Shown here in pieces: positions 3,729 to 33,261 of a DNA stretch of 41,044 nt. The first letter of the stretch is position 1. Every line of letters starts with the position of its first letter. The DNA is from a virus (lineage: Duplodnaviria > Caudoviricetes): the IMG/VR virus record IMGVR_UViG_3300044723_000587, positions 1-41,044 of that record; one strand, written 5' to 3'. The notes under the pieces were generated by a model. It was given only the letters and a program-made list of their open reading frames with translations, did no database searches and was not told where the DNA came from. The position numbers and the translations under genes are program-made.

Positions 3729-4137
3729 TATAGAGGAAGTTTATTCTCAATCCTTATCTGATGAGTTTTCTATACAAGTTAAAAAGCCGTTAGGATTTAG
3801 TGTAGTAAATTATGGAGTAAAGATTCAAAAGTTTAATAGTAAGATTGAATTATTAAACTGCTCTAAGAGTGGTAATTATTTCCAAGAATTTACAGAGGAT
3901 GAGTATAATTTATTTTATCAATACGGATGGAAGGAGGGAGGAGTAAGACTATCTTTATTAAATTACAAAAGAAAGTTAAATTTAGTAAACGATAAAATAA
4001 GGATAGAAATTAATACTCGAAAGAATAATAAACATATATCTAAATTAAAGTCAACAAGAGAAAATTTGTTGGTTAGATATGCAACCAGAAATAAACAATT
4101 AAATAAAATTAAATCAAATGAAAAAAAACATTTTTAA
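3721..4137 (+). CDS. Hypothetical protein, basic C-terminal helix
   Basis: 138-aa ORF overlapping both neighbours. Confidence 0.75.
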   Translation: MYSIEEVYSQSLSDEFSIQVKKPLGFSVVNYGVKIQKFNSKIELLNCSKSGNYFQEFTEDEYNLFYQYGWKEGGVRLSLLNYKRKLNLVNDKIRIEINTRKNNKHISKLKSTRENLLVRYATRNKQLNKIKSNEKKHF

Positions 4138-4720
4138 AGAATTATCTGCAGTTTCCATAAAAGGAAAGACAGATAAAAAAGGAAAGTTTGATTATATGTC
4201 TTGGGCTACGGCTTGGAGTATGATCAAGTCAGAGTACCCTAATGCACAGAGAAAAGTATATGAGTCAGAACACACTGGACTAAACTTTTTTACTGATGGT
4301 AAGACTGCATATGTTAAGGTAGGAATTATAATTAATGATATGGAACATATTGATTACCTACCAGTTATGGATTTTAGAAATAATTCTATAACAATGGAGA
4401 AGTTAACATCTATGGATGTAAATACTGCAATACAAAGATCAACTGCTAAGGCAATTGCTATGCATGGATTAGGATTATCATTATGGATTGGAGAGGATAC
4501 AATTATAACTACTCCAGCATCTAATGTAGTTAGTAAGAATCCATTACCTACAAAGCAAAAGTCAGTACAATTAAATATTGGAGATGCTAACTGGGATAGA
4601 GTTATGAAGTATATTGTAGATAATAAAGAGTTAGGATTACCTAAGATTGTTAAGGCACTTGAGACTAAGTATGATATTAAGGCAAGTGTTAAGAAAGAAC
4701 TATCAAAGCTTATCAAGTAA
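4118..4720 (+). CDS. Sak3/DUF1071-like single-strand annealing protein
   Basis: YMSWATAW, LPVMDFRNN, DVNTAIQRSTAKAIAMHGLGLSLWIGED motifs; lies near exonuclease and SSB. Confidence 0.85.
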   Translation: MKKNIFKELSAVSIKGKTDKKGKFDYMSWATAWSMIKSEYPNAQRKVYESEHTGLNFFTDGKTAYVKVGIIINDMEHIDYLPVMDFRNNSITMEKLTSMDVNTAIQRSTAKAIAMHGLGLSLWIGEDTIITTPASNVVSKNPLPTKQKSVQLNIGDANWDRVMKYIVDNKELGLPKIVKALETKYDIKASVKKELSKLIK

Positions 4721-5055
4721 TGGAAGACATTACTTTATACGATCTACTTAACTTAAAACTATCAAAGTTAACGTGGACAGAAAAAATTCATGAGAGTAAA
4801 ATTTCAAGTGAAGAAGGATTCTCTATAGAATTAGATTATTATAAAAATATTGGTAAGAATAAAGATAAAGACCAGTTACTTGTAAATATTTACTATAAAC
4901 ACATAAACATAGGTGCATTTGGATCTATAGAAAAAGAAGAGTCGGACCAATTTGCTAAGTGGTTTATTGATCAAGCTGAATTAATTGACAAGTCTGATGA
5001 GCAACATGAGAAATTTTTAGAGATTGAGGGTAAGGATAAATTTAAAAACTTATAG
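4720..5055 (+). CDS. Hypothetical protein
   Basis: 111-aa ORF, TAATG coupling with the upstream gene. Confidence 0.7.
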   Translation: MEDITLYDLLNLKLSKLTWTEKIHESKISSEEGFSIELDYYKNIGKNKDKDQLLVNIYYKHINIGAFGSIEKEESDQFAKWFIDQAELIDKSDEQHEKFLEIEGKDKFKNL

Positions 5056-5056
5056 T

Positions 5057-5794
5057 ATGTATCAAATATTAGAAAAATTAAAAGATGATAAGAATTATTA
5101 TGGAGAGTTTGGTCAGCAGTATCTATCAAATTCTGATATAATAACTTTATTAAACGATCCTAAAGAATTTAGGAAGCCAAAGGAGGTAACAAAGGCAATG
5201 CTACTGGGGAGATATTTCCATACTGCTATGTTAGAGCCAGATAAGTTAGATTCTAATGAGTTTATAGATATAGATGTGTCAAGTAGGAATACTAAGAAGT
5301 ATAAGGAAGAATTACTTATACAAAATAAAAGTATTATAATGCTTTCTAAGGAAAAGTCTGGTATTAATAATGCAATATCTACTATGAAGAACAATTTAGA
5401 ATTCTATGATGCTATTTATGATTTAGATAATACATATGAAGTACCTGCGGTACATGAAGTTATGGGTATTATGTGGAAAGGTAAGGCAGATATTGTAGCT
5501 AAGGATATGCTAATAGATCTTAAGACTACCTCAAACATCAAAGACTTTAAGTATAGCGCACGAAAATATAATTATGATAGTCAGGCATACCTATACCAAC
5601 AATTCTTCAACAAACCTCTTGTATTCTACGTTGTAGACAAGTTAACGTTGGAGTTAGGAGTCTATCATCCATCACAAAAGTTTTTGGAGTATGGAAAAGA
5701 GAAAGTAGAGCGAGCAATCGAAGTGTATAACAAATTTTATAGTAAAGATGCTAAAGAAGATATTGAAACGTACGTCATTAAAGAGGTACTTTAA
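5057..5794 (+). CDS. PD-(D/E)XK exonuclease (DUF3799/RecE-like)
   Basis: LSNSDI, GRYFHTAMLEP, KGKAD, IDLKTT, YNYDSQAYLY; probable start 5057. Confidence 0.85.
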   Translation: MYQILEKLKDDKNYYGEFGQQYLSNSDIITLLNDPKEFRKPKEVTKAMLLGRYFHTAMLEPDKLDSNEFIDIDVSSRNTKKYKEELLIQNKSIIMLSKEKSGINNAISTMKNNLEFYDAIYDLDNTYEVPAVHEVMGIMWKGKADIVAKDMLIDLKTTSNIKDFKYSARKYNYDSQAYLYQQFFNKPLVFYVVDKLTLELGVYHPSQKFLEYGKEKVERAIEVYNKFYSKDAKEDIETYVIKEVL

Positions 5795-15800: not shown

Positions 15801-18800
15801 TTTCTCATTAACTTAATAGCTTCTGACTTACTATATATATCTGCAGGTAAAGTCTTACGCATAAAGTTTCTAAGCTCTCTTTGTATTTTTCTTAATTCTT
15901 TTTTACCTTTAGTCTTAGCTCTTAATATTATTCTGGCTTTACGGATAGCCGCATTCAAGTTTGTACTTTGCTTACCACCTAAAGCTTTAGCAACATCCAT
16001 TTCTAATACCATCTGCTCAGTAGAAATTCCTTTCAGTACAGCATCAGCCATTTTTTTATACTCAGGCTGTGCTCTTAAGAAGTCCATAGCCTGATCCATT
16101 ATCTCTTGTTCGGATAGTTTGGTTTTAGCTTTAGCATTTTTAGTTATTAACTTATTATAATGATTAGAAACTTTATTAAATAATTTAATACCAGCCTTCA
16201 TACCCCCTACTATATTACCCATTGATGGTGGTATAATACTAAGAAGGTCTGCATTTACTTTCATTAAGTCTCTAACCTCAGTCTTAGTAAACTTTCTTAC
16301 TCTTGTTAAGTAATCAAGAATAGCAGGATCTGTAAAGTTTAAGTCTCTTGCTTTATTAATTATCTGTAATGGTGTATCAAACTTATTAAAAGTCTTTTGT
16401 GCTTTCTCATCTACACTTCTTTGTGCTTTTTCTTTAGTAGGTGTATATACCTTACCATCTGGTCGGATTAATTTATATCCAGTAAGCTCACCTATATCTC
16501 CTCTTTTTACTTCTACTTTGAACCCTAATGAGTTTGCCCAGTCTTCTAAAGCTACTCTATTAACTCCTGGCTTATTAAAGATAACACCATTCTTTTTCAT
16601 CTCATACATCTTAGCCAGTCTATCTACTGAAGCTTTCTGTGCTTTTTCAGAAGCCTCATTACGCATAGAGTATTGTGGGCGAAACACACCTTTATAATCA
16701 GTACGACCACCTATAACTATTGCATCACCATCTTTAACTAATCTTTGCCACACTCCTTGGGAAGCATCGTTAGTATACCGAGATGATACTAATGTCTTAC
16801 CTTTAGCCTCCATTGCTTTAGCTATCTCTCTATACATATCAGGAGCTAATCCTAATCCTCTGTCAAAATTTTTGATATACACTTGGGATACACTTGGTGT
16901 AGATGTTTGTAGTTCAGATGTAGAAAGTTCTCCTGCTCTTCTAATCCCTTTCATTAATACAAATTCTCCTTTACCTGTTTCTTTTACAGAATAACCATCA
17001 GGGAGTTGTGCTTTCTCACTTTTCTTTATCTTTTTATTTTTACTTAACCATTTTGCATCAGGAACAAATTTCTTTGGTTTATTTGCTTCTGTAAAGTATT
17101 CAATCTTACCTCTTCCATACACTCTGTGTCCAACAATAGTAGCCTCTTCTACAGATCTAACTGGACGGTTGCCCTCAGCTGTCACAAACAAACCACCTCT
17201 CATAGGATTAAACCTAATTTCTACACCATCAAAGTTAGTGTCAGCAAGAGACACGTCTTGGTAAAGTCCATCAACTGAAGCTATAGGAGTTTTATGAGTG
17301 TAACCCTCCTTTATCTTATATACACCTTCTTGATGAACATTGAGGTACACATCTTTTAATGTTACAGCTGGAGCATAGTTTATTGCGGTACCCTTAAAGA
17401 ATCCTGATATACCATCTACTCTTTTATATTTATCGCTAACCTGTCCTTGATGTACAGTTTGAATAGGAATCCCTTTATTTTTTAATACATTTAGATTTAA
17501 CCTAACTCCAACCTTTTCACCTTTCTTCGGTTGTAATCCTTTAGCTATAACTTCTACTGATTTTGTATCACTATTTAAGGCTGCGTCTACTTCGGCTTGA
17601 GTAAAATCAAAACTTCTTTTCTGAGCTTTCTCTGGGTATAATATTTCCAGATCTTGCTCTGTAATTACTTGTGCTTTTTCTTTTATTGGTGCACCCTCTA
17701 CATTAATATCTTTAGGAACCTTAGCAACATACTGTCCACCCATTGCAGAACGAGCAGCTACAGGTTTCGTTCTTTTACCTAAAAGAGTTTGATTACCAGA
17801 AACTGGTTTTGCTTTTGGATAAACCTTTCTAACATCTACTGCATTATTAAATACCATCATAGGTTTACCAGGTAATGCCCATGGGTATGCTGGATGATAT
17901 CCAGGATCACCTTCATTTAATTTAAAAGGTTTACCATCTTGGTCAAACTCTATAGCTGAAATTATATCTCCATATTGAATTTTCTTAAGAGATGGATCAT
18001 TAACTACACTCTCTATATCCCCATCAATAGTTTTTTTCGCTTCAAAAGGATAGATGCCAAACTTATTATATGACTCTGCACTCATAAATTTTCTTGCAAA
18101 CTGACCTCTTACTTCAAAATTTGTAGTTTTAAATAAATCTTGTATCTCTTGGTAATTTTTAATTTGTGTTGGTAATCCATTCTTTTTTAAATATGTAGTA
18201 ATTTTACCATCTCCTCCATCTTTAGTTTTATCAGCAAGTTTTTTATTTATATAATCTACCATTTCTTTTGGTGATGCACCCTTTTCTATTGCATTTTCAA
18301 TCTCTGCATTTAAGAAATCATAAAATTGTAGATTACCTGTAATACCATCTGAAGCCTGAGACATAACAAGTCCCACACCATCACTTTCTTTAGCTTTATT
18401 TAAAACTTTATTAGCTGCTGATTCAGCAGAAAATACCCAAACAGCATTACTTCCTTGAGACTCCGAGCCATAAGGATATAGGTATCCTCCGTTAAACATA
18501 AACTCTAAGCCTGATGGGCTTTCTATATTACCATAAGTAGCTTGGTCTGCAGCAAAAACAAAAGCATTCACTCCACTAAGATCGTTAATAGAACCACGTT
18601 TTATTTTACTCATATCAATACCACCCCTATCTTTTTGGTTTTTTTCTGTTACCTCTAAGTCAATAGACGGACCATCATCAGGAATATTTTCAGGCACAGG
18701 ACCTTCAGCATCTTCTACTACCTCTCCAGGAATCACTTCTATATCTCCCTCTGTAACTTCTGTTCCTTCTCTTACTTTCTTAGATACTGTGTTGAAGAAG

Positions 18801-21800
18801 TCAATCATATCAGCCTCTTCCTTAGTAAACTCTGTTATGTTAACAGGTAAACCAACAGCTTTAGCTGCTTTCTGTAACCATCTCTTTACTATATTTTTAG
18901 TTGGACCATCTAACTGCGTATAAGCTGCAGATAAATATCCAAACAACTCAGACACTTGCTCTTCATTTTGTTCTTCAATAGCATAGTCTTTAGCGAAATC
19001 TTCTATAACTTCTTTCAGATTGGAATCTTTAGGCATTGCTTTTACTACCGCATCTAACATTCGCTTTGTAACTTTACTAAAGTCTGCATTGATTCCCAGT
19101 TTCTTTAATAGCACTGCGTGCATAACCTCATGGGCAACAGTTCTGGTATTAGCCTTAGGAGCGTTGATATGAATAGTATTAGTTGTGGGAGAAAAGGTTC
19201 CTCGTGTTCCTTTGTTTGCTTCACTAACTGCTTGATTATAAGCGTCTTCTGTAGCGTGAAGCACAATATTGGCATTAGGCATTAACTTAGCAATAGCCTT
19301 ACCTGCATTCTTAGCTTGTCTTAATAAAGAAGGAAGAATCCTTACTGCTTTAGGATCACCTGCAGTTTCAGTTACACTTACATTTTCACTTACACTTACA
19401 CCTGGTAGTGTTACCTTTGTCCCATCATTTTTTTCTATAGTAACATTATCATTTTCACTATCTACTTCAACTCCTTTAGTTTTAACCTTAGAATCAGTTT
19501 GTTCAGGAGTTCCTTCTTGCTCCTGCATACCTGTTTGTTCATTAAATATAGATGTTAAATCTTCTACTTCCTCTTGCGTCTGCGAGTCAATATCTGTTTC
19601 ACTTTCGATACTTTCCTGGGTAGGCTCCCCTTGGGTGTCTCGCTCTCCCACTTCTTGGCTACCCTCGGTAGATTCTTGTACATCCACTTTCTTTGGGCTT
19701 GACTTTTGAATGGCATCTCTTTTAGTTTTAATTTGTTCAGGAGTTGGGTTCTCTACTCCCTCCTCTTTTAATTCATTTATTGCCTGAGTATTTAACTCAG
19801 TCTCTTGTGCTTCTTGTTGGTTTTGTATATTACCAGATCGAACTATTCTTTCTACATCATTCTCTAAATCTAACAACTCTTGTTGTTGTCTTTTAGTTAA
19901 TTGTTTATTATATTTATCTATATCATCTTGAAGTTCTTGCTGTCTTAAAAGATTACCAAGTAACTCTTTCTTTTGATTAGTAGGAAGGTCAGATGGTATT
20001 TGATCCATAACACCATTAACTTTATCATACATATCAATTTCACGCTGTCCTTCCTCTTTAGTAATTTCATTATTTAAAATACGCTCTTTAGTTTTTTGAA
20101 TAAATGCGTCTCTTACTACAGGCTCCTTATGAACCTGCTCATACATCTCAAAAACACCATCTCCTAAACCAGTGAAATCTCCAGCTGTTGCTGTCTGTAT
20201 AATAGCAGAAGGCGTACCAATTACAAATCCTCCCACTGCTTCCTGTAGCCCTGCTCTGATTACTTGCTTTACTCCATCACCAAAAGATTCAGGAGTTCTA
20301 AACATTTCTTTTTCTTTATTATAATTATAAGCTTCTTTAAAACCTATGTCAGCAATCTCTTGTGCAAGCCCCGTCTCAAACTCAGCTAATCCAGAAGCTG
20401 TAACTAACAGAAGTCCTTGCCCCATAAGGTTGTTAACCTCTTTCTTTACTACTTGTCTAAAGCTTTGCCCTGTAATATCTTTACCACTTTTCTTTAGTGC
20501 CAGTAATAATATTTTACTTGCCAAACCTTTCTGAGCAATAGCATTTCTAAACCCAAGGTTTTCTAATACACCTACCACTATACCTAAAGGTACAGTAAAC
20601 ATAGTCTTCTCAGCTTCACTTATATCTGCAAAGTCAGGATCATTTTCCATCTCCTCATTAATATGGTCTTCTACTTGAGATATCATATTAAATATTCTAA
20701 CAGGAGCAGGCCCTAACATAGCTGGTATAGATTCAGTTACTCCTATCAGGGCTCCTCCCCAAAAACCTTTTTTAGCTTCTTGAGTAGCCTCCTCAGTAGT
20801 TTCATCCATACCTAACCCATACCTTAAACCTCTACGCCCAGCCTCTAACATTCCCATTTTCTCGTCATACTTTGGATCGTTAGCAAACTGAGAGAACGGA
20901 TTAGCGTACACATTATCTCCAGGCTTTACATCGTACTTTATTTCTTTACGAACCTCATCTAATATTTTAGATTCTATATCATCTAATAAAGTTGTAGTTA
21001 CTTTTTGAGTAGAAGCAGATGTACCGTCTTTTATAGATCCTGCTGATTTAATTTCTGTAGTAGTTCCTGGAGTTTTTTCTATTAACTTTAAAAATCTTTC
21101 ATACTCTTCATCATTAGAAATAATTTCTTGTATTCTTTCTTCCGTATAAGTGTCTCCTAATAAACCAGCTTCTTTTGCTTTAGTTAACACTTTGGTTCTA
21201 TACTCATTCTGAGACATTAAGCCTCCTTCTGCAGGTGCCATATAAGTACCTATATCAATCATCCTATTCATTTGTTGAGTTCCTATACGAGCCGAACCCT
21301 CTAATAAAGCATTATAACCAAAACCCGCTATACTACTTTGCTCACTACGCATCTCGTACCATCCGCCTACAACCTCATCTAATTCTTTTCCTTTTACTGC
21401 TAAATTCTTTTTAGATATTGCAATATTTTGAGAGGCTAAAGCTATTTTTTCTGCAAGAACTTTAGGAGTTGTAGCCATTTGCTGCCCGTCAGGGCCTTCT
21501 ACATATACCACCTCGTTAGGATCCATGTCAGATAAATTATTTTTATCATAAAAGTTTTTAGCCATTAAGTATTCACTGTACTCATCTCTAAGAGAATTGG
21601 TTTCAGTATTTAAATCCTTAACCATATTCTCTACATCTTGCTTTCCTTGAATCTTTTGTTGTTTCTTTACATAGCCAGCCTCTAATTGGTGTAACTTAGT
21701 GCTCTCTTCTTTATTGTCTTTTAAAAATTGTTTTAACTCATCAGAATATTTACCCTTAAAAAACAAAGCATCTAATTCTACTTTTAATGTTTCTCCATTA

Positions 21801-22516
21801 GCGGCAGACACTGTCATCTCATTACCTGTAAAATCTGCTTCAGTAAAAGTAAACCCATAGTCATTAAAATGATAGTTCATTAATGGAACTACATTCTCTT
21901 CTGTCTTAGAAATAAGGTCTGGTGTAATCTGTTGCAGGGACTCATCAAAAAAATCACTTGGCTGCTCAACAACCTCTTCAGTGGTATCTACTTTAAATAA
22001 TCCTTTATAATTAGGATCGCTACGCTCCTCTTGTGTAGACTGAGTTATAAGGCTTTTTAATCCACCCCAACTTTCAGGCTCATACCCTTTAACTAATCGT
22101 GGTTTTATTAAATCTTCAGGATTTACTTGGTTGCCCTGCCCTATATTTATGGTTTCTTCTTCAGTTTCTTCAACACCAAATTCAGGGGCACCTTCAGTTA
22201 TCGCACTATCAACTTGTTCATTACTTGGCTGAAGAGAAGGCTCCGATGAGCCAGGTTCTTGAATGTCCTCGATACTTGATACCATAACTTCCTCTTCTCC
22301 AGTACCATTGCCAACGGGATTTTTTTTTTCACCGATACCAAATAAAGTTACAAAGTCATTAACAGTTCCTTTATAACCTGTATTGACAAAGTATTTATAT
22401 GTATCATTAACAGCATCTCCATTAGTATTAAGGAGTGTTTTATAATCATCTATTGTACCTTGGTATCCTGTCTTTACAAAATATTTGTACCCGTCATTGA
22501 TTGCTTCTTCGTTCAT
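12842..22516 (-). CDS. Giant internal virion/ejection protein (large polyvalent protein-like) with zincin metallopeptidase and GNAT modules
   Basis: 3224 aa, last of the ejection cluster; RGTF..IHIN..TVAHEVMH..EEQNEEQVSE; RGLGLAPDMY..VWQRL GNAT pattern; Gly/Ala hydrophobic helices. Confidence 0.8.
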   Translation of the reverse strand: MNEEAINDGYKYFVKTGYQGTIDDYKTLLNTNGDAVNDTYKYFVNTGYKGTVNDFVTLFGIGEKKNPVGNGTGEEEVMVSSIEDIQEPGSSEPSLQPSNEQVDSAITEGAPEFGVEETEEETINIGQGNQVNPEDLIKPRLVKGYEPESWGGLKSLITQSTQEERSDPNYKGLFKVDTTEEVVEQPSDFFDESLQQITPDLISKTEENVVPLMNYHFNDYGFTFTEADFTGNEMTVSAANGETLKVELDALFFKGKYSDELKQFLKDNKEESTKLHQLEAGYVKKQQKIQGKQDVENMVKDLNTETNSLRDEYSEYLMAKNFYDKNNLSDMDPNEVVYVEGPDGQQMATTPKVLAEKIALASQNIAISKKNLAVKGKELDEVVGGWYEMRSEQSSIAGFGYNALLEGSARIGTQQMNRMIDIGTYMAPAEGGLMSQNEYRTKVLTKAKEAGLLGDTYTEERIQEIISNDEEYERFLKLIEKTPGTTTEIKSAGSIKDGTSASTQKVTTTLLDDIESKILDEVRKEIKYDVKPGDNVYANPFSQFANDPKYDEKMGMLEAGRRGLRYGLGMDETTEEATQEAKKGFWGGALIGVTESIPAMLGPAPVRIFNMISQVEDHINEEMENDPDFADISEAEKTMFTVPLGIVVGVLENLGFRNAIAQKGLASKILLLALKKSGKDITGQSFRQVVKKEVNNLMGQGLLLVTASGLAEFETGLAQEIADIGFKEAYNYNKEKEMFRTPESFGDGVKQVIRAGLQEAVGGFVIGTPSAIIQTATAGDFTGLGDGVFEMYEQVHKEPVVRDAFIQKTKERILNNEITKEEGQREIDMYDKVNGVMDQIPSDLPTNQKKELLGNLLRQQELQDDIDKYNKQLTKRQQQELLDLENDVERIVRSGNIQNQQEAQETELNTQAINELKEEGVENPTPEQIKTKRDAIQKSSPKKVDVQESTEGSQEVGERDTQGEPTQESIESETDIDSQTQEEVEDLTSIFNEQTGMQEQEGTPEQTDSKVKTKGVEVDSENDNVTIEKNDGTKVTLPGVSVSENVSVTETAGDPKAVRILPSLLRQAKNAGKAIAKLMPNANIVLHATEDAYNQAVSEANKGTRGTFSPTTNTIHINAPKANTRTVAHEVMHAVLLKKLGINADFSKVTKRMLDAVVKAMPKDSNLKEVIEDFAKDYAIEEQNEEQVSELFGYLSAAYTQLDGPTKNIVKRWLQKAAKAVGLPVNITEFTKEEADMIDFFNTVSKKVREGTEVTEGDIEVIPGEVVEDAEGPVPENIPDDGPSIDLEVTEKNQKDRGGIDMSKIKRGSINDLSGVNAFVFAADQATYGNIESPSGLEFMFNGGYLYPYGSESQGSNAVWVFSAESAANKVLNKAKESDGVGLVMSQASDGITGNLQFYDFLNAEIENAIEKGASPKEMVDYINKKLADKTKDGGDGKITTYLKKNGLPTQIKNYQEIQDLFKTTNFEVRGQFARKFMSAESYNKFGIYPFEAKKTIDGDIESVVNDPSLKKIQYGDIISAIEFDQDGKPFKLNEGDPGYHPAYPWALPGKPMMVFNNAVDVRKVYPKAKPVSGNQTLLGKRTKPVAARSAMGGQYVAKVPKDINVEGAPIKEKAQVITEQDLEILYPEKAQKRSFDFTQAEVDAALNSDTKSVEVIAKGLQPKKGEKVGVRLNLNVLKNKGIPIQTVHQGQVSDKYKRVDGISGFFKGTAINYAPAVTLKDVYLNVHQEGVYKIKEGYTHKTPIASVDGLYQDVSLADTNFDGVEIRFNPMRGGLFVTAEGNRPVRSVEEATIVGHRVYGRGKIEYFTEANKPKKFVPDAKWLSKNKKIKKSEKAQLPDGYSVKETGKGEFVLMKGIRRAGELSTSELQTSTPSVSQVYIKNFDRGLGLAPDMYREIAKAMEAKGKTLVSSRYTNDASQGVWQRLVKDGDAIVIGGRTDYKGVFRPQYSMRNEASEKAQKASVDRLAKMYEMKKNGVIFNKPGVNRVALEDWANSLGFKVEVKRGDIGELTGYKLIRPDGKVYTPTKEKAQRSVDEKAQKTFNKFDTPLQIINKARDLNFTDPAILDYLTRVRKFTKTEVRDLMKVNADLLSIIPPSMGNIVGGMKAGIKLFNKVSNHYNKLITKNAKAKTKLSEQEIMDQAMDFLRAQPEYKKMADAVLKGISTEQMVLEMDVAKALGGKQSTNLNAAIRKARIILRAKTKGKKELRKIQRELRNFMRKTLPADIYSKSEAIKLMRKIEQANKDNINEIMNEVMEFAAQKNNVRLHKSIDDLLDPKNTLKKISNILKGVKIDETTRKRLASLKKRIDDGSLATQDKVLEYIYKLETEYDNINKQPEKTEGDYTAMSDLQIIMNMVKANNLMSNEDITKVNVLAGVETELKQIITAGRTILKEQLRKAHLEYQRQFEQVFLDVTGRTESFKDQAKKQLKEEGVENPTEAEIQDKITDIIENIKDTKDSRGRDESGTSKKKIKVKERFKKLTNNIVQRLGNVMAKNSDLFLLMDKISLLPAELFEGNTQEEVTKKIDAANREMKGRMLMNDALIISKFQELFGKKYKSIVTSFGRKTEAIDLPDGTEMVLSPNQMYYLYNQYKDSSNHPGLQKTFSTDEKGVAKVMNEITTRLESEQYKNLKEFADWQVDILYPMLYNHYNEAYQDIYRTQMPYNVNYAGMVYREGQEAEGVNLIPGADGGKIQYHNVVAANSTKMREQNKKKIRAMDGTNVLYTYMRDMEYFSAYARPVNDINKLFTNDVIKSEIERLHGKPTMDAITAAIQKIANKGTFKENAQMDNAVDIMQDLFILSRLGINPVVTLKQLTSFITYASDIGYGNWMKNAALSRFGKGKDVKAIWKEISENSTYLQDRDAKSMTKAIEMYSDDAMESVFPDITIGGKRLMTGANKESLINILMYTTKVGDRGAIYLGGVPNYVYYKNKALEAGKTEQEAIDEAIVKFERDTKRSQQSTDLQDRDYYQTKGPIFRALNMFLTTPKQYLRKEVYALRNMYRLMSSGGKSGKGTKTDAGRIFLTYHVIMPVFFQFVANGMPGLLADWEDEDAKDLGMAAILGNINALFIYGEFAVKIKDLIIGKPQSFLKFKNLPILTQGEEIFQRFARYRDTKDPKKKQEALYKALAETSQITGLPVNNVRKIFKNMEQLIEGGEDPAKVIMRLFNFSEYQIQNEAERKRNKKSKRKAKKKADSNPMISGDPMNSEDPMNDKTDPMLYKNPME

Positions 22517-25753: not shown

Positions 25754-26560
25754 CTATGGATTACTTTTCATTACACTTCCTCCTACAGCAAACAATTCAA
25801 CTGCATTGGTATTAGTATTTTCAAGCGTAAAATTTAAATAGTATCCACGTGCACCATGTGATTCTGCTACAGCATTTTTAGCAAATAAAATAAAGTCTGT
25901 AACTGAAGGAACTGTACCTGTAGTACAGTTAACAGTAATAGATCCTAATGTAGCTACACCAGTAGCAGTAGTAGAGGGTTGAGTGATAGCAGTTATTACA
26001 CCACCAAGAGTAGGCGTACCTGCTGGAGCAGGGAATGTAGTAGGGGTTACCCAATACATTTCATCACCAACACTTACTATACTTCCTATGTCTACCTTAA
26101 ACTCTATAACAACTGCTGTTACAGGACCTGTAATATTAATACACGCCCCAATCCCATTTACCGACCTGTCTTTTAAATCTAAGGTGTTTTCATTCTCTCT
26201 TAAAAACGTAAACCACTCTCCTTCCTTTTGCTCAAAGTAGGTAGACAACATAGACCCAGTCCCTAAGTCTGAGAATAAACTTGTACACGCCCACCTGTCA
26301 TCACTCTCGTACGACATGGTCTTAAACAACTTAATAGTCATCGGCTCTACATTAAACACTGAGGTAATAGTAGAACTATACTGAACACCATAATAATTAT
26401 TTCTTAGTAAATTGGTATTATGTCTATATAACTGACCACCTTTCCAGCTGTAAAAAAACCCATTCATACCACACATATAATCTGGTATAAAAGAATAGAA
26501 CGAAGGCCAGCCTTTTACGTCTTCGCTGTAGGATAATGTTTGTGCTGGGTATGATGACAT
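25754..26560 (-). CDS. Tail protein resembling the C-terminal part of a nozzle/stabilisation protein
   Basis: TLSYSEDVKGWPSFYSF, RNNYYG, KLFKTMSYE, KEGEWF, RGYY, ELFAV. Confidence 0.7.
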   Translation of the reverse strand: MSSYPAQTLSYSEDVKGWPSFYSFIPDYMCGMNGFFYSWKGGQLYRHNTNLLRNNYYGVQYSSTITSVFNVEPMTIKLFKTMSYESDDRWACTSLFSDLGTGSMLSTYFEQKEGEWFTFLRENENTLDLKDRSVNGIGACINITGPVTAVVIEFKVDIGSIVSVGDEMYWVTPTTFPAPAGTPTLGGVITAITQPSTTATGVATLGSITVNCTTGTVPSVTDFILFAKNAVAESHGARGYYLNFTLENTNTNAVELFAVGGSVMKSNP

Positions 26561-26581
26561 ATTTTTATTTTAAATATTAAA

Positions 26582-28000
26582 CTATTGTATATCAGAACAC
26601 GCTACTATAGATTTAACAATACCATCTATATACGCTCCGCTTGATTGTACATTATATCCTTGATTAGCATAATCTTCAGGAGGTAATGCTTGTTGTTGAA
26701 CAGGAGACCTTTCTACAGTACTTCCATCAAACCAAACAGGTCCTGTATCTTTATACTCTCTTACCCCAACTTCTACTATCCAGTCTCTTAACCCTCCACC
26801 ATCATTAGCATCAAAAGTCATTTTGTAAAGACCAGCAGCTAAAGGGTTTTCTCCGTTTTCATCTGTATATATCCAGTCATGCAAACCTAATACTCCATTT
26901 TGTTGCCCTATTATAGTAGTCTGAGGAAAATTTGCTGAAGCATAATAACTTGAATTAGGATTTGAACTTCCGTAAGCATCAACAGGAACATGATAATAAG
27001 TTGCTTGATTAGGAGCTGCACATACTGTGGTTGGATCAGTTCCTTTAGCAAGCCTTATACTGCCCTGTATTCCTGTTAATAATCGAGGGCAATCTACTTT
27101 AAGTCCCCACCAAGAACCACAAGGAGAGTCTACTGTAATAGTTAATATATTATTTGAAACTCCAGGAGGAGAAGGAACAACCATAGTAGCCCCCCTGTAT
27201 TCCATTCCAGGTGAAGGCCAAGGAGTTCCAGGAGTTCCAAGGGATGAATAGTAAGAGTATGGAGGTAGATTAGGAGCTAAAGCCCTGTGAGGAGCAAAAG
27301 GATTAGAAGGTACTAATAAAGAGTCAGGTAAAGTAGGAGGTCTTTCAAAATAATTCCAATTTAAAAGTGTGGACTCATACGTTCCTGCGTTATTTGACAA
27401 ACCTGTCCATCCTAAAGGTGCTACTTGAGACCCTACATTCCAAGGTCCTGTAGCAACAAACGCCTGGGTATTAGCATCCCATATATATTCTTGACCTGTA
27501 GGAGAATAATTATCACTACCAAATTCTGTAGTCATTGTCTCTGAAGTTCCAACAAAACAATCATCTGAAGAATCTGGTCTTGGAAGAGCATCAGGTGATC
27601 CTATTAATCCTGTTTGATAACCACCAACTAAAGCACTATACTCTGATGCTGTAACACCATTATAACTCCAAGTACATTGATCGGGAGAAGGAAAAGTAGT
27701 AGTGTTTAATTGCCCAGAACTAAATGTTATTATTGCAGCTCCTGAAGTAGACCCTAAATTTATATCTATAGTATACCTACCCGTACCTCCGCTATTCTGC
27801 CATTGTGTATTACATGCAAGCGAACAAGTAGGGCATGGCTGAGGAGGGCCTAAAACCCCTGAAGTCATTACTCTACTAAAAGATCCAAAAGTATATATAC
27901 CATCAGATGCAACTGTAGTTAAAGCCGCATCAGAATATAATTGTGTTGCTGAAGAAAATGATACTCCAGCCCAATATACTGTAGGTGTTGTACAAGCCAT
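26582..28000 (-). CDS. Putative tail fibre/appendage protein
   Basis: 472 aa rich in Thr/Ser/Gly/Pro with CPTC and other Cys; inside the tail cluster. Confidence 0.6.
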   Translation of the reverse strand: MACTTPTVYWAGVSFSSATQLYSDAALTTVASDGIYTFGSFSRVMTSGVLGPPQPCPTCSLACNTQWQNSGGTGRYTIDINLGSTSGAAIITFSSGQLNTTTFPSPDQCTWSYNGVTASEYSALVGGYQTGLIGSPDALPRPDSSDDCFVGTSETMTTEFGSDNYSPTGQEYIWDANTQAFVATGPWNVGSQVAPLGWTGLSNNAGTYESTLLNWNYFERPPTLPDSLLVPSNPFAPHRALAPNLPPYSYYSSLGTPGTPWPSPGMEYRGATMVVPSPPGVSNNILTITVDSPCGSWWGLKVDCPRLLTGIQGSIRLAKGTDPTTVCAAPNQATYYHVPVDAYGSSNPNSSYYASANFPQTTIIGQQNGVLGLHDWIYTDENGENPLAAGLYKMTFDANDGGGLRDWIVEVGVREYKDTGPVWFDGSTVERSPVQQQALPPEDYANQGYNVQSSGAYIDGIVKSIVACSDIQ

Positions 28001-28017
28001 AATTTATTTATTTATTT

Positions 28018-31000
28018 TTAACATGTTCCACTATTTATTACCACACCATTTTGACCAAGTTGAATCCATTTTTTTGGTGACGTTGTTGATGGGTTATTTG
28101 CGTCAACTATATAAAAACCAGTAGCTACAAATCCTTCAAAAAACAAAGTTCCATTTACATTAACTTGTGCATTTGGATTACAAGTATTAGTACTGTCCAT
28201 ATAACATATGTCTCCAATTGTAGGGGTACTATAAGCACCAGAGAATGATTTCAATCCTAAACTTAAAGGACTATTTGTATCAGTAGCACATACTTGTGTA
28301 GCATTCTGTGTTTGTGGGCCAAAGTAACATGTGTTACATGGAGGAGTACAAGTACAACAAGCTTCTTCAATAGTTGATCCCCCTGTACAATAGCATACTG
28401 ATTGACTTGTTATCATTCTTAAATCCCATATTAAATATAAATAATCATTAACAGCAGGCATATTAAAAGCTGGTTCAGTAGCCTGAAACACACCTGTAGA
28501 TGGATTAGTTATAGGACCACTAACTACTGATGATGCCGCAAGTAAACTGGCAATATCTGCAGTACTATTACTATACAAAGTACTTGAAGATAATATTTTA
28601 AAACTATGTAATGCAGGATCAAAATCAAAATTATCAGGAATAATTTTTTGAGTCCTTATATTTATATCTGAACCTGTAGATGGGAAAACACCAACTCCTC
28701 TTACCCCTGTAGATGATTGATATATTGCTGGTTGAGATGTTGTTAAAGCTGCTGCCGTTAAATTATAAGGACTTATTGTAGGAGTGTTAGTCCAATTATA
28801 AGATGTATGAATAAACTCATTAACATAATTTGGAGAATTAACCACAACCTGAACAACTGTTAAAGGTATGGTTGGCGGACACTCTATTGTTATCTCATAG
28901 CTACTTAAATTATTAACTGTAATATCTACATTAGCTTGTGCCGATGGAAGAGATTTGTTAAAACTTAATGTTCCTGCACCTGTTAATCCTACTTGATTTA
29001 TAACTACCGAACCGTTCCAAGTAATAACTATATCAATAGACCCTAAAGTTATATTGTATGGTATATTAACTTGACCTGTTACTGTTCCTAAAGAAACATT
29101 GTAATTTAAATTATCAGTAGTACTATACTGAGTTAATGTAGTACCACAAGGAACCTTAGCTCCTGGAACAAATATACCAGTGTTGTTTGTAGTTAAAACA
29201 TACTCATTCATATAAGGATCATAACCTCCTAATTTTTGAGTAGCAAGTTGAGCGTTAAATCTATCTCTAAACCAAGAGTTCATACCATATTGTGACACAA
29301 CTTGTAGTTGATCACTACCTTGAGATGCACCTCTTAAGTTAAGTACAGCTCCTCTTTTGGTATCTGTAAAAAACATATCATATCCCCAAGAGGTAAAACT
29401 TTCAGGATTAAAACTAATTCCAAATTCTTCTATTCGTGCTACCTGAGTTCCTAATATTTCACGTACAGATGCAATTGCACCACCACCTGTAGAGTCAGTA
29501 ATAACATTTTTCTCTACTAATACATATGATATTTTATCTTCTTGCAATGTAAGAATGTCTGTTTCTCTTGCGTGTAATTTCATGATAGGACCAAAAGAAG
29601 TTTCGCAATCTTTAAAGTTTACTAAACCTAAATTAAACTCATTTAAGTTATTACTGTTAGCGGCTCCACTATACACACCGCTGTATGTCATTCCTGCAAA
29701 ACGGTCAGCCTCTTTAAAGTCTTGATTAGAAACTGCTAATACTCTTTCTCCTAAATTAAAAAACTTACCTGCTGGACTATCTCCAATTCTATAACTCTCA
29801 ACACCATTTCCAAATGTATAACAATTATATGCAGTTAAGTCTGTAGTTAAATCTGTAGTTGGACTTTGATTAACAGAGTTAGGAGCTAAACTATAAGTGT
29901 TAGACTGAACGTCATATATAGTATTAGCCATATGATAAGGCTGAGCACCTGCAGTTTGAGGTTCAATATCTAATAATTCTGATGCATCATAAAATAAATT
30001 AGGGTCTGCATCTTGAGGCACAGTTTCAAATACAAATAAAGATCCACCTCTTGTAACCTCTATAAGTGTACTACAATGACCATTATAATATTCAAATGCT
30101 TCCCAACAACGAGGAATATTACAAGTATTTACAAAAAATTGTCTACCATTTGTAGCTTGTCTTATTCTACACACACTATTAAATTGATTTTCTGTACACC
30201 CACTTCCTGATGTAACCAGAACTGGATCAAAAGATATAGCCATTTCTTGAGCAGTACTTGCCTGTTGAGTTGTCATTTGACTTGCAAGATCATCTCCTAC
30301 AGCCCAAGCGTGAAAGCTTGGGTAATCTGAAGTAGAAACAAAAGACCTATCGTAAGTTAAACTCTTACTGTCACAATCGCCTCCGCCTCCGCCTCTCCAA
30401 TTACGAATTTTAATTCTTATAGTTGACCCAGCAGGAATGGTATAAGGAACACTTGGAGTAACATCATTATCATTTAAATCATAATTACTAATACATCCAT
30501 CTTTAAAATTACCTGCATCATTTGCATCTTTAGACATTCTTCCTCTAAAGTAAGAAGGCTCTGTGTTTTCAATATTAAAACCACCTGGTTTTAATAACAT
30601 ATAAAGACCAGCTAAAGAAACATCTGTTATCTCTTTAGTAGCAAAAGCCTCTACTGCTAAAACAGTTGTAGACACTTCTGATGCTACCGCACCTCCTGTG
30701 TCCACCTTTACTATTAATTCATCTCCAACTTTTACTAAGTTTTGATTATTACCCTCTAACTTAAACCACACTAAACTTGGGTCGTTTTCATTAGTCAGAC
30801 CACTACTTACTCCTGACTGTTTACCTGATCCATCTTGCTGGTAAAAAGTATTTGAAAAAATAGTCATATAATTCCCTTCACTTGGCTTTATTACAAACTT
30901 ATATTTCTTTGCCCAATAAGGAGGTAAGTTACTTAAAGTAACTCGTATTTTATTTTTATAAGTTGACTTGTCAGGTTCAACAAATACAGTGTTAGTATCA

Positions 31001-33261
31001 GAGACTAATACTGTAGATGATCTACCGTAGTCATCCATATACACAACGCCTACTTCGTAATCTCTATTTGAATGTAGACTGTTTGTTTTACTTACCTGCC
31101 TGTATCCAGCAGTACATCCATACCCTATAAAGTTATAATAAATAAATGCTTCACTATAATTTGAGGAAGCAGGTGAAGTTCCGTCTGTATAATAATATTG
31201 AGTAGCAGGAAGCTCCAGAATGAAACCACCAGCAGTTGCTGTAAACTCAATACCTGAAGGGCTACACAATGCAGAGCTTCCAGATGCAGGAGTTATTTGA
31301 TAATTTACCCCACTTGTTTCTAAAGTTACTAAACCACCATTTATATCTGTTAACCCTAAGTCATTGGCTGCTATTGAATTAACACTTGCTGTTAATCCTG
31401 TAGCCATATCCATTACTATATCTCCTACTGCTAATCCAGCAATTAAAGTAAAGTCTATATTTGAATTGGTTAAAAATCCTGCAACAGCTGCGTCTGTAGC
31501 TCCTGAAGTAATAATAGTATTACTACATGTTAAAGGAAAAGATGATGGAGTACATTGTTGTGCTACCGTTCTTCCACCATTAATTAATTCTAAGTTAGTT
31601 CCTGTCATAGGAGTTACTGCAGCTTCATAAAACTTATCTGAAAGTGTAGCTCCTTTATTTGAATTATAACAAGGATAAAGCTCTTGAATTGAGTTAGAAC
31701 TAAATCCTTGAGCAATAGAACCTCCTATTCTTTCTTTAAACTCCTGAGATGCACACATTTGTGTTACATTAGGATAGTCAACAGAACACGTAAAACTCAT
31801 TCTAATTGTAAAAGGAGACTGCTGATTAAAATTATTTCCATTATTAGTACTACACTCTACCCCTGTACCGTAATCATTACAGGTAATACTGTTTTGAGAA
31901 ATAGAAAAACCAAAGAAAAAAGTAGTCCCTGTTTTTATATCTCCTGAAGTTGGATTTGCAGCCGTTAGATCCCATGTTAATCGAGAGTCGGTACCTACAG
32001 CTCCGCCTCCTATAGTATAAGCAGAAGTCTGTACAAGTGGATTTGCAGCTACTGCAGGAACACCACCTTGAGCAGGACTTGCAACCGATCCATTTCCTAA
32101 AGGAACTCCCGCTATCTCTTCAAAGACAGGAGCTACAGTATAATTTATAGGTATTTTATTCCCATCAAAAGCAGAAAGTAAATCATAACCATCCACATAG
32201 TTTCCGTATATTAATCTATTACCTTTAATGGTTTGAGCCTTAGCAGTTCTTGGAACATTATCATAAAGTCTTAGTAATTCATCTGAACCTAATGTGGTAT
32301 AGATTTCACTATTTGTAAATCGATGAGTCATAGTATCATTATTAGGAATACCTAAGTCATCTTTTTTAAATCTTTTAATAACATTTATAACATTAGATGT
32401 AGTTTGTTTAAATAACAAATCTATTTCTACTACTCTTTTAGTACCTGTAGAGAATGTAACATCAAAAGCTTTATAAACATTATACATCCCTGCATTTAAA
32501 TAGTCATCAATACTAAATCTAAATTCACGAGGTTGAAACGCAGGATCACTAAATAAAGATATTGCACTATACCCTCCATCTGTATATCTATATCTATAAG
32601 CAAAAGTAACAAACCTGGTTTGTAAATAATTTTCTTGACCTACATAGTCCTGTATAGGAACCACTACTGGAGATCCTAACGGAGAATTTTGTCCTGCCGT
32701 AGTATCAAACTCTTCGTATCCTGGTGGCTTAACTATTACGCTAATATCTTCTTCTTTAAATATAGTATCTATACCACCTACAGGATAATCATAGTCTCTT
32801 GTTACATTAATTACTCGAGGAGGATTTATATCGTCAGTAAAAAATAATAAATCTTCTATCTTATTTATACCAGTAATTAAATGTTTTTCATCAAAATTTA
32901 AAACAGATGTACTTATACAGTGATAAGTCAAAGAAGAAGTATTAGTATTAAAAGATACTATTAAGTCAACCTTACCTGTAGGAGAGTTTGGATTATTACT
33001 ATCATGTATAAACCAATAAAGAGTTTCATTTATACCATCTTCATAAACTCCAAGTGTTTTTCCATTGACTGTTTGCCCTGCATATTCAACATTAGTTAAA
33101 AGAGAATTACCTTTAGAGTTTTCTACAGCTCCTATTTCAGTAGCTTCAGTAGACCCTAAACGAACATTTAAAGCATCTATATACTCTCCAGGTGGAACCA
33201 AGCGTTCATCAACGCTCTTATTCATTTTACCTGCTATAAAATTTGTTGAGGCTTTTGCCAT
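28018..33261 (-). CDS. Tail nozzle/stabilisation protein with accessory domains
   Basis: GKMNKSVDERLVP.GEY.DALN, LFFTDD.NPPR.IN, FAYRYRY, GNRLIYGNY, YEVGVVYMDDYGRSS, FGISFNPESF, GGYDP. Confidence 0.8.
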   Translation of the reverse strand: MAKASTNFIAGKMNKSVDERLVPPGEYIDALNVRLGSTEATEIGAVENSKGNSLLTNVEYAGQTVNGKTLGVYEDGINETLYWFIHDSNNPNSPTGKVDLIVSFNTNTSSLTYHCISTSVLNFDEKHLITGINKIEDLLFFTDDINPPRVINVTRDYDYPVGGIDTIFKEEDISVIVKPPGYEEFDTTAGQNSPLGSPVVVPIQDYVGQENYLQTRFVTFAYRYRYTDGGYSAISLFSDPAFQPREFRFSIDDYLNAGMYNVYKAFDVTFSTGTKRVVEIDLLFKQTTSNVINVIKRFKKDDLGIPNNDTMTHRFTNSEIYTTLGSDELLRLYDNVPRTAKAQTIKGNRLIYGNYVDGYDLLSAFDGNKIPINYTVAPVFEEIAGVPLGNGSVASPAQGGVPAVAANPLVQTSAYTIGGGAVGTDSRLTWDLTAANPTSGDIKTGTTFFFGFSISQNSITCNDYGTGVECSTNNGNNFNQQSPFTIRMSFTCSVDYPNVTQMCASQEFKERIGGSIAQGFSSNSIQELYPCYNSNKGATLSDKFYEAAVTPMTGTNLELINGGRTVAQQCTPSSFPLTCSNTIITSGATDAAVAGFLTNSNIDFTLIAGLAVGDIVMDMATGLTASVNSIAANDLGLTDINGGLVTLETSGVNYQITPASGSSALCSPSGIEFTATAGGFILELPATQYYYTDGTSPASSNYSEAFIYYNFIGYGCTAGYRQVSKTNSLHSNRDYEVGVVYMDDYGRSSTVLVSDTNTVFVEPDKSTYKNKIRVTLSNLPPYWAKKYKFVIKPSEGNYMTIFSNTFYQQDGSGKQSGVSSGLTNENDPSLVWFKLEGNNQNLVKVGDELIVKVDTGGAVASEVSTTVLAVEAFATKEITDVSLAGLYMLLKPGGFNIENTEPSYFRGRMSKDANDAGNFKDGCISNYDLNDNDVTPSVPYTIPAGSTIRIKIRNWRGGGGGDCDSKSLTYDRSFVSTSDYPSFHAWAVGDDLASQMTTQQASTAQEMAISFDPVLVTSGSGCTENQFNSVCRIRQATNGRQFFVNTCNIPRCWEAFEYYNGHCSTLIEVTRGGSLFVFETVPQDADPNLFYDASELLDIEPQTAGAQPYHMANTIYDVQSNTYSLAPNSVNQSPTTDLTTDLTAYNCYTFGNGVESYRIGDSPAGKFFNLGERVLAVSNQDFKEADRFAGMTYSGVYSGAANSNNLNEFNLGLVNFKDCETSFGPIMKLHARETDILTLQEDKISYVLVEKNVITDSTGGGAIASVREILGTQVARIEEFGISFNPESFTSWGYDMFFTDTKRGAVLNLRGASQGSDQLQVVSQYGMNSWFRDRFNAQLATQKLGGYDPYMNEYVLTTNNTGIFVPGAKVPCGTTLTQYSTTDNLNYNVSLGTVTGQVNIPYNITLGSIDIVITWNGSVVINQVGLTGAGTLSFNKSLPSAQANVDITVNNLSSYEITIECPPTIPLTVVQVVVNSPNYVNEFIHTSYNWTNTPTISPYNLTAAALTTSQPAIYQSSTGVRGVGVFPSTGSDINIRTQKIIPDNFDFDPALHSFKILSSSTLYSNSTADIASLLAASSVVSGPITNPSTGVFQATEPAFNMPAVNDYLYLIWDLRMITSQSVCYCTGGSTIEEACCTCTPPCNTCYFGPQTQNATQVCATDTNSPLSLGLKSFSGAYSTPTIGDICYMDSTNTCNPNAQVNVNGTLFFEGFVATGFYIVDANNPSTTSPKKWIQLGQNGVVINSGTC

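Follow-up and report, generated by a model that had tools for sequence, protein, structure and literature searches.

Autoproteolytic release has been proposed for the polyvalent proteins of phages, with RNA-virus polyproteins as the analogy (Iyer et al. 2017, PMC5512222). N4 vRNAP, ArdC and TraC1 carry such domains and, according to the available parts of the same source, are packaged or transferred unprocessed, and the HExxH domain of N4 vRNAP is described without mention of cleavage in the available parts of PMC13434306. For crAss-like phages, cleavage of fused forms has been suggested (PMC13434306; bioRxiv 2020.03.07.982082). Self-processing of polyvalent proteins is already known as a proposal of 2017, and the literature searched, which had most subscription papers outside its scope, names no junction or cleavage motif for such proteins; the available main-text parts of PMC5512222 give no recognition motif and contain no occurrence of the word "linker". 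The Elemovirus counterpart of the protein described below is a 3,694-aa protein of Flavobacterium phage elemoA 7-9A (QLF85284.1), which is labelled a structural protein. Five other Elemovirus isolates have a protein of equal length that is 18–44 substitutions apart, and the available parts of PMC7077304 contain no proteomics for elemo phages.

The giant protein and its peptidase domain

The window, meaning the whole 41,044-nucleotide stretch of DNA analysed, comes from a viral record that is about 68% complete. It holds a giant ORF, P0001, which is a relative of the Elemovirus Flavobacterium phage proteins (Table 1), and all eight coordinate sets given by an earlier sequence-only reading, for one HEVMH motif and seven EK[A/N]Q motifs, fall exactly in this single ORF. 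The gene position and the GenBank label of the Elemovirus protein suggest that P0001 is a virion protein. The chain features several unrelated domains, which are the peptidase, module A, an L5 gp82-like domain, a GNAT-like domain, module E and the tail. The N-terminal acidic scaffold is presumed to be the packaging or ejection part; Pfam searches gave no match for aa 1–1039 and nothing above the cut-off for the C-terminal tail.

Table 1. Features of the giant ORF in N- to C-terminal order, and the candidate recombination genes in the same window
Feature	Coordinates	Strand	Remarks
Giant ORF P0001, 3,224 aa	12842-22516	minus	Polyvalent-protein-like; closes the structural module
N-terminal acidic scaffold, about aa 1-1059	19340..22516	minus	Common to relatives; tag-free
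Zincin-like metallopeptidase domain, about aa 1060-1255	18752..19339	minus	HExxH and EE; fold matches
HEVMH zinc-binding/catalytic motif, aa 1129-1133	19118..19132	minus	Sequence motif; H1129, E1130 and H1133 invariant
E1185-E1186, likely third zinc ligand region	18959..18964	minus	Invariance (66/66) and position
Acidic N-arm of module A, about aa 1262-1290	18647..18733	minus	Co-inherited with the A body; candidate pro-peptide
Tag 1, EKNQ	18635..18646	minus	Internal arm/body site of module A; ordered coil
Module A body, 318 aa	17681..18634	minus	Highly divergent; occurs widely in giant phage proteins
Tag 2, EKAQ	17669..17680	minus	Swap junction
Acidic peptide, 12 aa	17633..17668	minus	Always precedes module C; candidate pro-peptide
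Tag 3, EKAQ	17621..17632	minus	Internal site between the 12-aa peptide and module C
Module C, 201 aa	17018..17620	minus	Phage_L5_gp82 domain, PF25735, E=4.1e-9, above cut-off
Tag 4, EKAQ	17006..17017	minus	Swap junction
Module D, 119 aa	16649..17005	minus	GNAT-like (weak)
Tag 5, EKAQ	16637..16648	minus	Swap junction
Module E, 68 aa	16433..16636	minus	Small and basic, alpha/beta; frequent in the family
Tags 6 and 7 with 4-aa spacer	16397..16432	minus	Directly before the tail
Conserved basic C-terminal tail, 1,184 aa	12845..16396	minus	Tag-free; found in 442 relatives
Sak single-strand annealing protein and exonuclease VIII-like gene	4118..5794	plus	PF06378, E=3.9e-28; phrog_412

The proposed zincin motif with a downstream EE ligand region was borne out by the alignment, in which all 66 rows have H1129, E1130, H1133, E1185 and E1186. 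The predicted model of the domain is of medium confidence (pLDDT about 50–86) and places the downstream Glu on a second helix relative to the HExxH helix. Its topology fits a three-stranded sheet with flanking helices, and the structures that match it best are the zincins PPEP-2 (Z 8.0, rmsd 2.9, 89 aligned) and collagenase T (Z 7.1), with Foldseek E values of 0.13 and weaker. A complex prediction for the peptidase, zinc and a tandem-tag peptide gave a median of 0.11 and is counted neither for nor against.

The tag and the modules that it bounds

EK[A/N]Q occurs in P0001 at aa 1291, 1613, 1629, 1834, 1957, 2029 and 2037, in each case C-terminal of HExxH, and, as had been claimed, nowhere else in the protein. 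These seven copies compare with 0.18 expected from composition. The motif consists of four common residues only, which favours an origin as chance repeats in a lysine- and glutamate-rich protein; this explanation is refuted, as none of 2,000 shuffles contains any 4-mer at six or more copies and the tags lie at conserved positions, where modules are also gained and lost. Elsewhere in the window, a single further EKAQ occurs among the ORFs, in the portal ORF (40368-40379), and is probably a chance occurrence. EKAQ had been put forward as the recognition site, but the motif is not specific to EKAQ: sequence comparison shows that [K/R]xQ is the tag across the family and that EK[A/N]Q is the form it takes in P0001. 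A logo of 519 tags from 165 of 177 proteins is informative in the flanks only, because the sites were pre-selected as [RK]xQ, and it takes in a number of false, domain-internal sites that the junction typing removed family by family. Blind 3-mer counting recovers the tag in some distant proteins only (FMP, SFS, FSM, VGA, RYS).

The module sizes of 318, 201, 119 and 68 aa had been read correctly, and pieces of 12 aa and 4 aa also lie between tandem tags. The placement of the motifs in linkers does not apply to every tag: model confidence is low in the stretch preceding tag 2 and in the stretch containing tags 6 and 7, but tag 1 lies within an ordered coil (block pLDDT 94 in the predicted model). 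The modules adjoining tags 3–5 are poorly modelled in the whole-region fold (aa 1040–2109), whose mean pLDDT of 45.8 is too low for parsing modules A, C and D. The module A body has 86 relatives, with a conserved D, GG, W, R and HxxY, and its model is confident (mean pLDDT 88). The best structural likeness is a weak one to PUA-like folds (YTH/EVE/ASCH; Z 4–5.8, rmsd about 4, about 120 aligned), and the model has a helical insert beside the PUA-like part. Structure searches with module A gave no Foldseek match at E<=0.001, Atlas values of 0.85 or lower, and no match with Z of at least 8; for module C an Atlas structure search gave no usable match. The GNAT-like assignment of module D is weak, with a Pfam FR47 match at E=0.0022 and an Acetyltransf_1 match at E=0.0096 in the homologue P0065, both below the cut-off. 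Module D is modelled at low confidence, and a search against PDB sequences gave no meaningful match.

The comparison of homologues confirmed the proposal that the tag bounds swappable cassettes. The 27 close relatives (P0001–P0027, of which P0014 is truncated and P0024 and P0025 have an untyped first module) differ by gain, loss or exchange of modules at the tag, with 20 junction types and 13 array strings. Motif-blind alignment starts lie within 8 aa of [RK]xQ in 35 of 64 cases in close relatives (11 expected) and in 175 of 447 in distant relatives (52 expected), while the control motif [RK]xD gives 62 of 447 (58 expected), all counts being from a non-dereplicated set. Additionally, the cargo-free proteins P0160 and P0178 still have the tag before the tail.

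The DNA crossovers map within the 11–12 bases of the tag (GARAAAGCACA). The Gln wobble base tracks the downstream module (CAA in 4/4 before the 12-aa peptide, CAG in 3/3 before module B and in 7/8 before module E), and the DNA upstream of the tag differs as far as the Glu codon. Both the crossovers and the wobble tracking favour an explanation without cleavage, in which short-homology recombination and duplication have left the tag as their footprint and the tag serves as an in-frame exchange joint in a protein that works as a single chain. The Sak and exonuclease VIII genes within the window, which are candidate machinery for short-homology swaps, are in line with this, as are the near-uniform DNA at the tag in the VGA lineage and the unprocessed precedents N4 vRNAP, ArdC and TraC1 (PMC5512222, available parts). 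Against it, the codon use of the seven window tags, with AAA in 7/7 (at 0.71) and GCA in 5/6 (at 0.37), is not clearly beyond the codon bias of the gene, and a footprint leaves unexplained the tags inside co-inherited units that are rewritten per lineage, the tag preceding the tail in cargo-free proteins, and the synonymous variation with fixed K/R and Q, and this explanation is considered unlikely. A site-specific DNA signal was rejected as unlikely, there being no constant DNA beyond the tag codons. The argument that codons vary between copies, so that the signal acts at protein level, stands with a reservation. Among close relatives the wobble bases differ while the encoded amino acids stay fixed, the Elemovirus tags RFQ, RQQ, RAQ and RMQ have little DNA identity, and the internal tags and the change of tag with peptidase clade agree with it, but the tag is also the DNA crossover point.

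Internal tags and the reader of the tag

Tags 1 and 3 are not swap points; each parts a short acidic peptide from its constant partner module. The peptide before module C has a tag on both sides, EK[A/S]Q (10/10), REQ (7/7) or RKQ/RQQ (1). The arm/body site of module A has [KR]xQ in 50 of 81 relatives (14 expected) and lacks it in 31. In 53 distant proteins this site shows FMP/FSP in 11, [FY]S-x in 16 and VGA in 6 (0.9, 1.9 and 0.2 expected), these motif classes having been picked after inspection of those proteins, and the motif often has a second copy before the arm. The middle residue of the arm/body tag agrees with the host tail tag in 5 of 24 cases against 3.1, which is no excess over chance (p=0.14), and one module A subtype retains [KR]FQ regardless of host. 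These findings, the relatives that lack tag 1 and its ordered surroundings speak against cleavage at the tags. Since tags 1 and 3 are not swap points and are rewritten in the tags of other lineages, they point to a protein-level signal, most likely self-cleavage.

The evidence on the correspondence of tag and peptidase points both ways. A cargo family carries the exact tail-junction tag of its host in 15 of 34 cases against 7.8 when shuffled (p=0.0007; hosts above 60% peptidase identity merged beforehand), and this host-matching is equally predicted by recombination alone. P0110/140/150/152/149 and P0120 share the tail at 45–48% and have a peptidase in a separate clade (99% SH-aLRT, in a quick tree with unresolved deep branches). 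The [F/L]QL proteins among them have exactly two tags, one before the arm of module A and one before the tail, and three of four copies of the FRK tag in P0120 are at junctions. Tag and peptidase do not track tightly, because P0110 and P0120, whose peptidases are sisters, differ in their tags, and P0198/203/204, with peptidases 32–36% identical to that of P0001, have LQ[L/K]. P0116/134/137, full-length proteins with no peptidase match that represent one event, have no such tag array before the tail. P0253, with nine SFS tags, lacks HExxH and shows only an EDxxE-like helix that is degenerate; P0231/235/236/241/243 gave no canonical zincin motif, and other lineages have EExxH. The VGA-lineage proteins were rejected as cases without a peptidase, since an EExxH variant is present.

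The loose correspondence and the persistence of tags beside the degenerate motif of P0253 would be expected if the protein-level signal had a reader different from the in-cis zincin, such as a phage head-maturation protease acting in trans, a host protease, or the packaging or ejection machinery, to which it would signal unfolding or hand-over. In that case the substrates of the zincin would be host targets or peptidoglycan, and for the corresponding domains of phi24B gp47 and phi14:2 gp65 a peptidoglycan role has been proposed (in the available parts of the sources), and another protease may be missing from a record that is about 68% complete. Against such a reader, proteins that share the rest of the scaffold but have another in-cis peptidase also have another tag, the window tags sit only downstream of the peptidase with one copy in other ORFs, and the tag precedes the tail even without cargo. 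This alternative is possible but doubtful.

The favoured reading, held on balance to be probable, is that P0001 is a [K/R]xQ-joined polyvalent polyprotein whose modules are exchanged at the tag, and that the tag is the likely recognition site of the in-cis zincin, which would separate the products during or after ejection. The chain would probably be packaged in the virion and ejected with the DNA, and the zincin may cut at the tags on either side of Gln. Cleavage at tags 1 and 3 would rid modules A and C of a short acidic pro-peptide and so activate them. As each unit has to finish with the tag, the tag repeats of 11–12 bases would become short homologies at which recombination of the Sak/exonuclease type could delete or insert whole modules in frame. 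A bolder version, offered only tentatively, is a protease-and-tag code in which the zincin of each lineage reads its own tag of 3–4 residues, captured modules are re-tagged in the code of the host protein, the tags are recombination joints, and internal tags clip pro-peptides so that anti-host enzymes act only after injection. If true, the tags double as joints and the gene is a self-assembling effector array.

Comparison with known systems

P0001 resembles the polyvalent proteins (PMC5512222, available parts) as a giant multidomain phage protein with HExxH and a downstream Glu, in the varying domain content of its relatives, and in the matches of peptidase-linked relatives to ART-PolyVal, LPD23, LPD38, methyltransferase and GNAT-like domains. 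It differs in that P0001 itself matches no LPD, ART-PolyVal or MPTase Pfam model; the available parts of that source also describe neither module exchange at a constant tag nor pro-peptide sites within units. The tail profile of P0001 did not reach into the LPD38 regions tested. The Elemovirus protein shares the place at the end of the structural module, a module A homologue, RxQ tags and a peptidase that is 36–38% identical to that of P0001 in 68 records, but has other cargo, another tail and a tag middle residue that varies within the protein. N4 vRNAP and phi14:2 gp65-67 are likewise giant proteins that are ejected, carry a HExxH domain of the zincin type and show autoinhibition (PMC13434306; bioRxiv 2020.03.07.982082, available parts); in contrast, they carry RNA polymerases, of which none was detected in P0001, and those parts mention no repeated site motif.

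The tag gives exact predicted cut sites, and the KAQ and FQL/FRK peptidases on one scaffold would offer a ready-made specificity swap. With the tag, thousands of residues that lack annotation can be divided into discrete candidate injected effectors, the widespread module A among them, and a cultured relative exists in Elemovirus on Flavobacterium sp. BAL314. Polymorphic toxins exchange cassettes at conserved junctions, and in RNA-virus polyproteins an embedded protease frees domains at short motifs. P0001 differs from both in its tandem internal modules between a fixed head and tail, in belonging to a dsDNA phage, and in its metallopeptidase.

Genome setting and composition of the giant protein

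The record is linear, spans 41,044 bases, and has an estimated completeness of 68%. Its plus strand encodes the replication genes Sak, exonuclease VIII-like, primase, and helicase, and its minus strand carries the structural genes, among them those for the portal and for crAss-type muzzle domains; this block ends with the gene for the giant protein P0001. The coexistence of crassvirus muzzle domains with a Sak, exonuclease VIII, and primase-helicase replication set was observed in this phage, and no RNA polymerase was detected within the window. Among cultured viruses, only Elemovirus (Flavobacterium phages) matches the peptidase region of P0001, in 68 records at 36–38% identity, and there the gene is labeled as a structural protein. 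We infer that the phage host belongs to Bacteroidota and that P0001 is located in the virion.

Selected features of the window
Feature	Position	Strand	Remark
Small gene with DnaA C-terminal helix-turn-helix	10776-11225	+	PF08299, E=9e-9
Giant ORF, 3,224 aa	22516-12842	-	End of structural block
12-aa peptide before module C	17633-17668	-	Resembles last residues of peptidase domain (ITExDIEI-like stretch)
Module A with arm	17681-18733	-	86 relatives
Two crassvirus muzzle-domain genes	25754-33261	-	PF25729, PF25731
Single EKAQ in portal protein	40368-40379	-	Probably chance

P0001 features an acidic N-terminal scaffold, a zincin-like peptidase, modules A, C, D, and E, and a basic tail. Its charge is polarised, with a net -94 for residues 1-1294, a net +34 for the tail, and modules that are near neutral to basic; the C-terminal end has short DPM repeats. 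The positions that the sequence-only reading had assigned to HEVMH and to seven EK[A/N]Q tags were confirmed. Composition predicts 0.18 copies of EK[A/N]Q, and across 2,000 shuffles of P0001 every 4-mer stayed below six copies; the tag array is real and non-random. All 66 aligned rows keep HExxH and E1185/E1186 unchanged, and the modelled peptidase domain has a zincin topology, for which the best fold matches, PPEP and collagenase peptidases, are weak.

Module A belongs to a very divergent superfamily that directly follows the peptidase in most family members and is also found in unrelated giant phage proteins (P0181-P0265). Its model is confident, yet has no clear fold match; a likeness to PUA-like base readers at Z below 6, to which a helical insert is added, is a weak lead. 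The residues that it conserves (D, GG, W, R, HxxY) suggest that module A may be an enzyme. Module C holds an L5 gp82 domain, and module D has a GNAT-like match below the cut-off; as clues to function these are weak as well. ADP-ribosyltransferase, methyltransferase, and LPD23 domains occur in relatives. The arrays of P0048, P0058-P0065, P0093-P0096, and P0147 include a further HExxH domain as a cargo module, HE[V/I/L]QH adjoining LPD23.

Module exchange at the tags

The P0001 peptidase search returned 85 relatives among 1,355 candidates and the tail search 442 relatives, 120 of them among the matches listed. Between peptidase and tail, P0001-P0027, of which one is truncated and two have an untyped first module, are arranged as slot A, which has three alternatives, the 99-aa module B, a 16-aa piece, module C in one of two variants, D, E, and an 8-aa piece. 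Module presence and absence switches exactly at EKxQ in this set. The 13 array strings and 20 junction types counted there bear out the earlier proposal that the modules are cassettes swapped at EKAQ. Non-homologous neighbouring modules have only the tag in common, so each junction type requires a crossover at the tag. In nine IMG/VR loci and the window, the Gln wobble base tracks the downstream module and the DNA upstream of the tag diverges as far as the Glu codon, which places the crossovers within ~11 bases. Motif-blind alignment ends, computed on sequences that were not dereplicated, are enriched about threefold at [RK]xQ in close and distant sets alike; for distant starts, single-residue controls gave 1.1-1.5-fold. 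Enrichment is also seen for patterns that overlap RQQK.

Evidence for a possible protein-level reader of the tag

Distant relatives spell the tag RQQ, REQ, RFQ/RLQ, RKQ, RSQ, or KSQ, and a single Elemovirus gene mixes RFQ, RQQ, RAQ, and RMQ. Wobble bases vary while K/R and Q stay fixed. With hosts merged above 60% identity of their peptidases, a given cargo family was found to bear the tail-junction tag of its host protein in 15 of 34 cases (7.8 in shuffles, p=0.0007). Recombination alone would predict this match as well. Six relatives have a P0001-type tail at 45-48% identity, as in RxQ-tagged relatives, yet carry peptidases of a separate clade. P0110, P0140, P0150, P0152, and P0149 have exactly two [F/L]QL each, before the module A arm and before the tail, and P0120 has FRK before E, A, and the tail. 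These six proteins have the peptidase after module A, the reverse of the window order, with no obvious tag between the two. Three near-identical full-length relatives with no peptidase match have no such tag array.

Two of the seven P0001 tags are not swap points. A 12-aa acidic peptide, which from its sequence may be a donor-gene remnant or a mimic of the peptidase-domain end, is invariably found with module C, flanked on both sides by EK[A/S]Q (10/10), REQ (7/7), or, in one relative, RKQ/RQQ. The acidic arm of module A co-travels with the body subtype, and 50 of 81 family members have [KR]xQ at the arm/body site, against 14 expected. In 53 distant giants, whose motif classes were picked after inspection, this site is FMP/FSP (11), [FY]S-x (16), or VGA (6), far above expectation, and a second copy precedes the arm (8, 9, and 3, respectively); the tally covers 144 non-redundant rows from 167 matches. 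A recombination scar does not readily explain a within-unit tag in each lineage's own spelling, whereas pro-peptide removal fits it.

Proposed self-cleavage and known polyvalent proteins

Tags, module exchange, and co-variation are observed; as for mechanism, we lean towards a packaged and ejected chain whose own zincin cuts it at [K/R]xQ, with short repeats that could serve Sak/exonuclease. P0001 would be packaged and ejected as one chain, and the cuts would detach the tail and modules A, C, D, and E from the acidic N-terminal region. Cuts at tag 1 (arm/body) and tag 3 (12-aa peptide/module C) would remove acidic pro-peptides, presumably an activation. Selection for a tag at each joint would create short direct repeats, which the Sak/exonuclease pair could use to gain or lose whole modules.

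Several results count against self-cleavage. The expectation that every motif lies in a disordered linker does not hold at tag 1, an ordered coil in the confident model of arm and module A (mean pLDDT 88); this region would probably lose its fold while passing a narrow tail. Of 81 relatives, 31 lack tag 1, and the middle residue of this tag did not follow the host (5/24, p=0.14). Tags can differ between sister peptidases. P0253 retains nine SFS despite a degenerate metal site, and canonical HExxH was not found in P0253, P0235, P0231, P0236, P0241, and P0243, where FS-type tags persist; the metal site there may be a variant, or a protease may act in trans. The VGA lineage (P0237, P0217, P0225, and loci L016-L021) features a REExxH zincin-like motif with Glu in place of the first His, together with a VGA[S/T] tag at which a module is inserted in L020 relative to L017.

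Our literature search found no publication on a junction motif of such proteins. Such domains are mentioned, with no cuts mapped, in passages of the phi24B preprint, an N4 paper (PMC13434306), and the phi14:2 preprint (bioRxiv 2020.03.07.982082). Iyer et al. (2017) defined polyvalent proteins, proposed autoproteolytic release, and drew the polyprotein analogy; no cleavage-site motif was found in its abstract, sections 8 and 34, and further passages (PMC5512222). The tag makes this long-standing proposal directly testable. Counting against self-cleavage, section 8 of that paper reports N4 vRNAP, ArdC, and TraC1 as unprocessed, whereas P1 DdrB is processed (PMC5512222).
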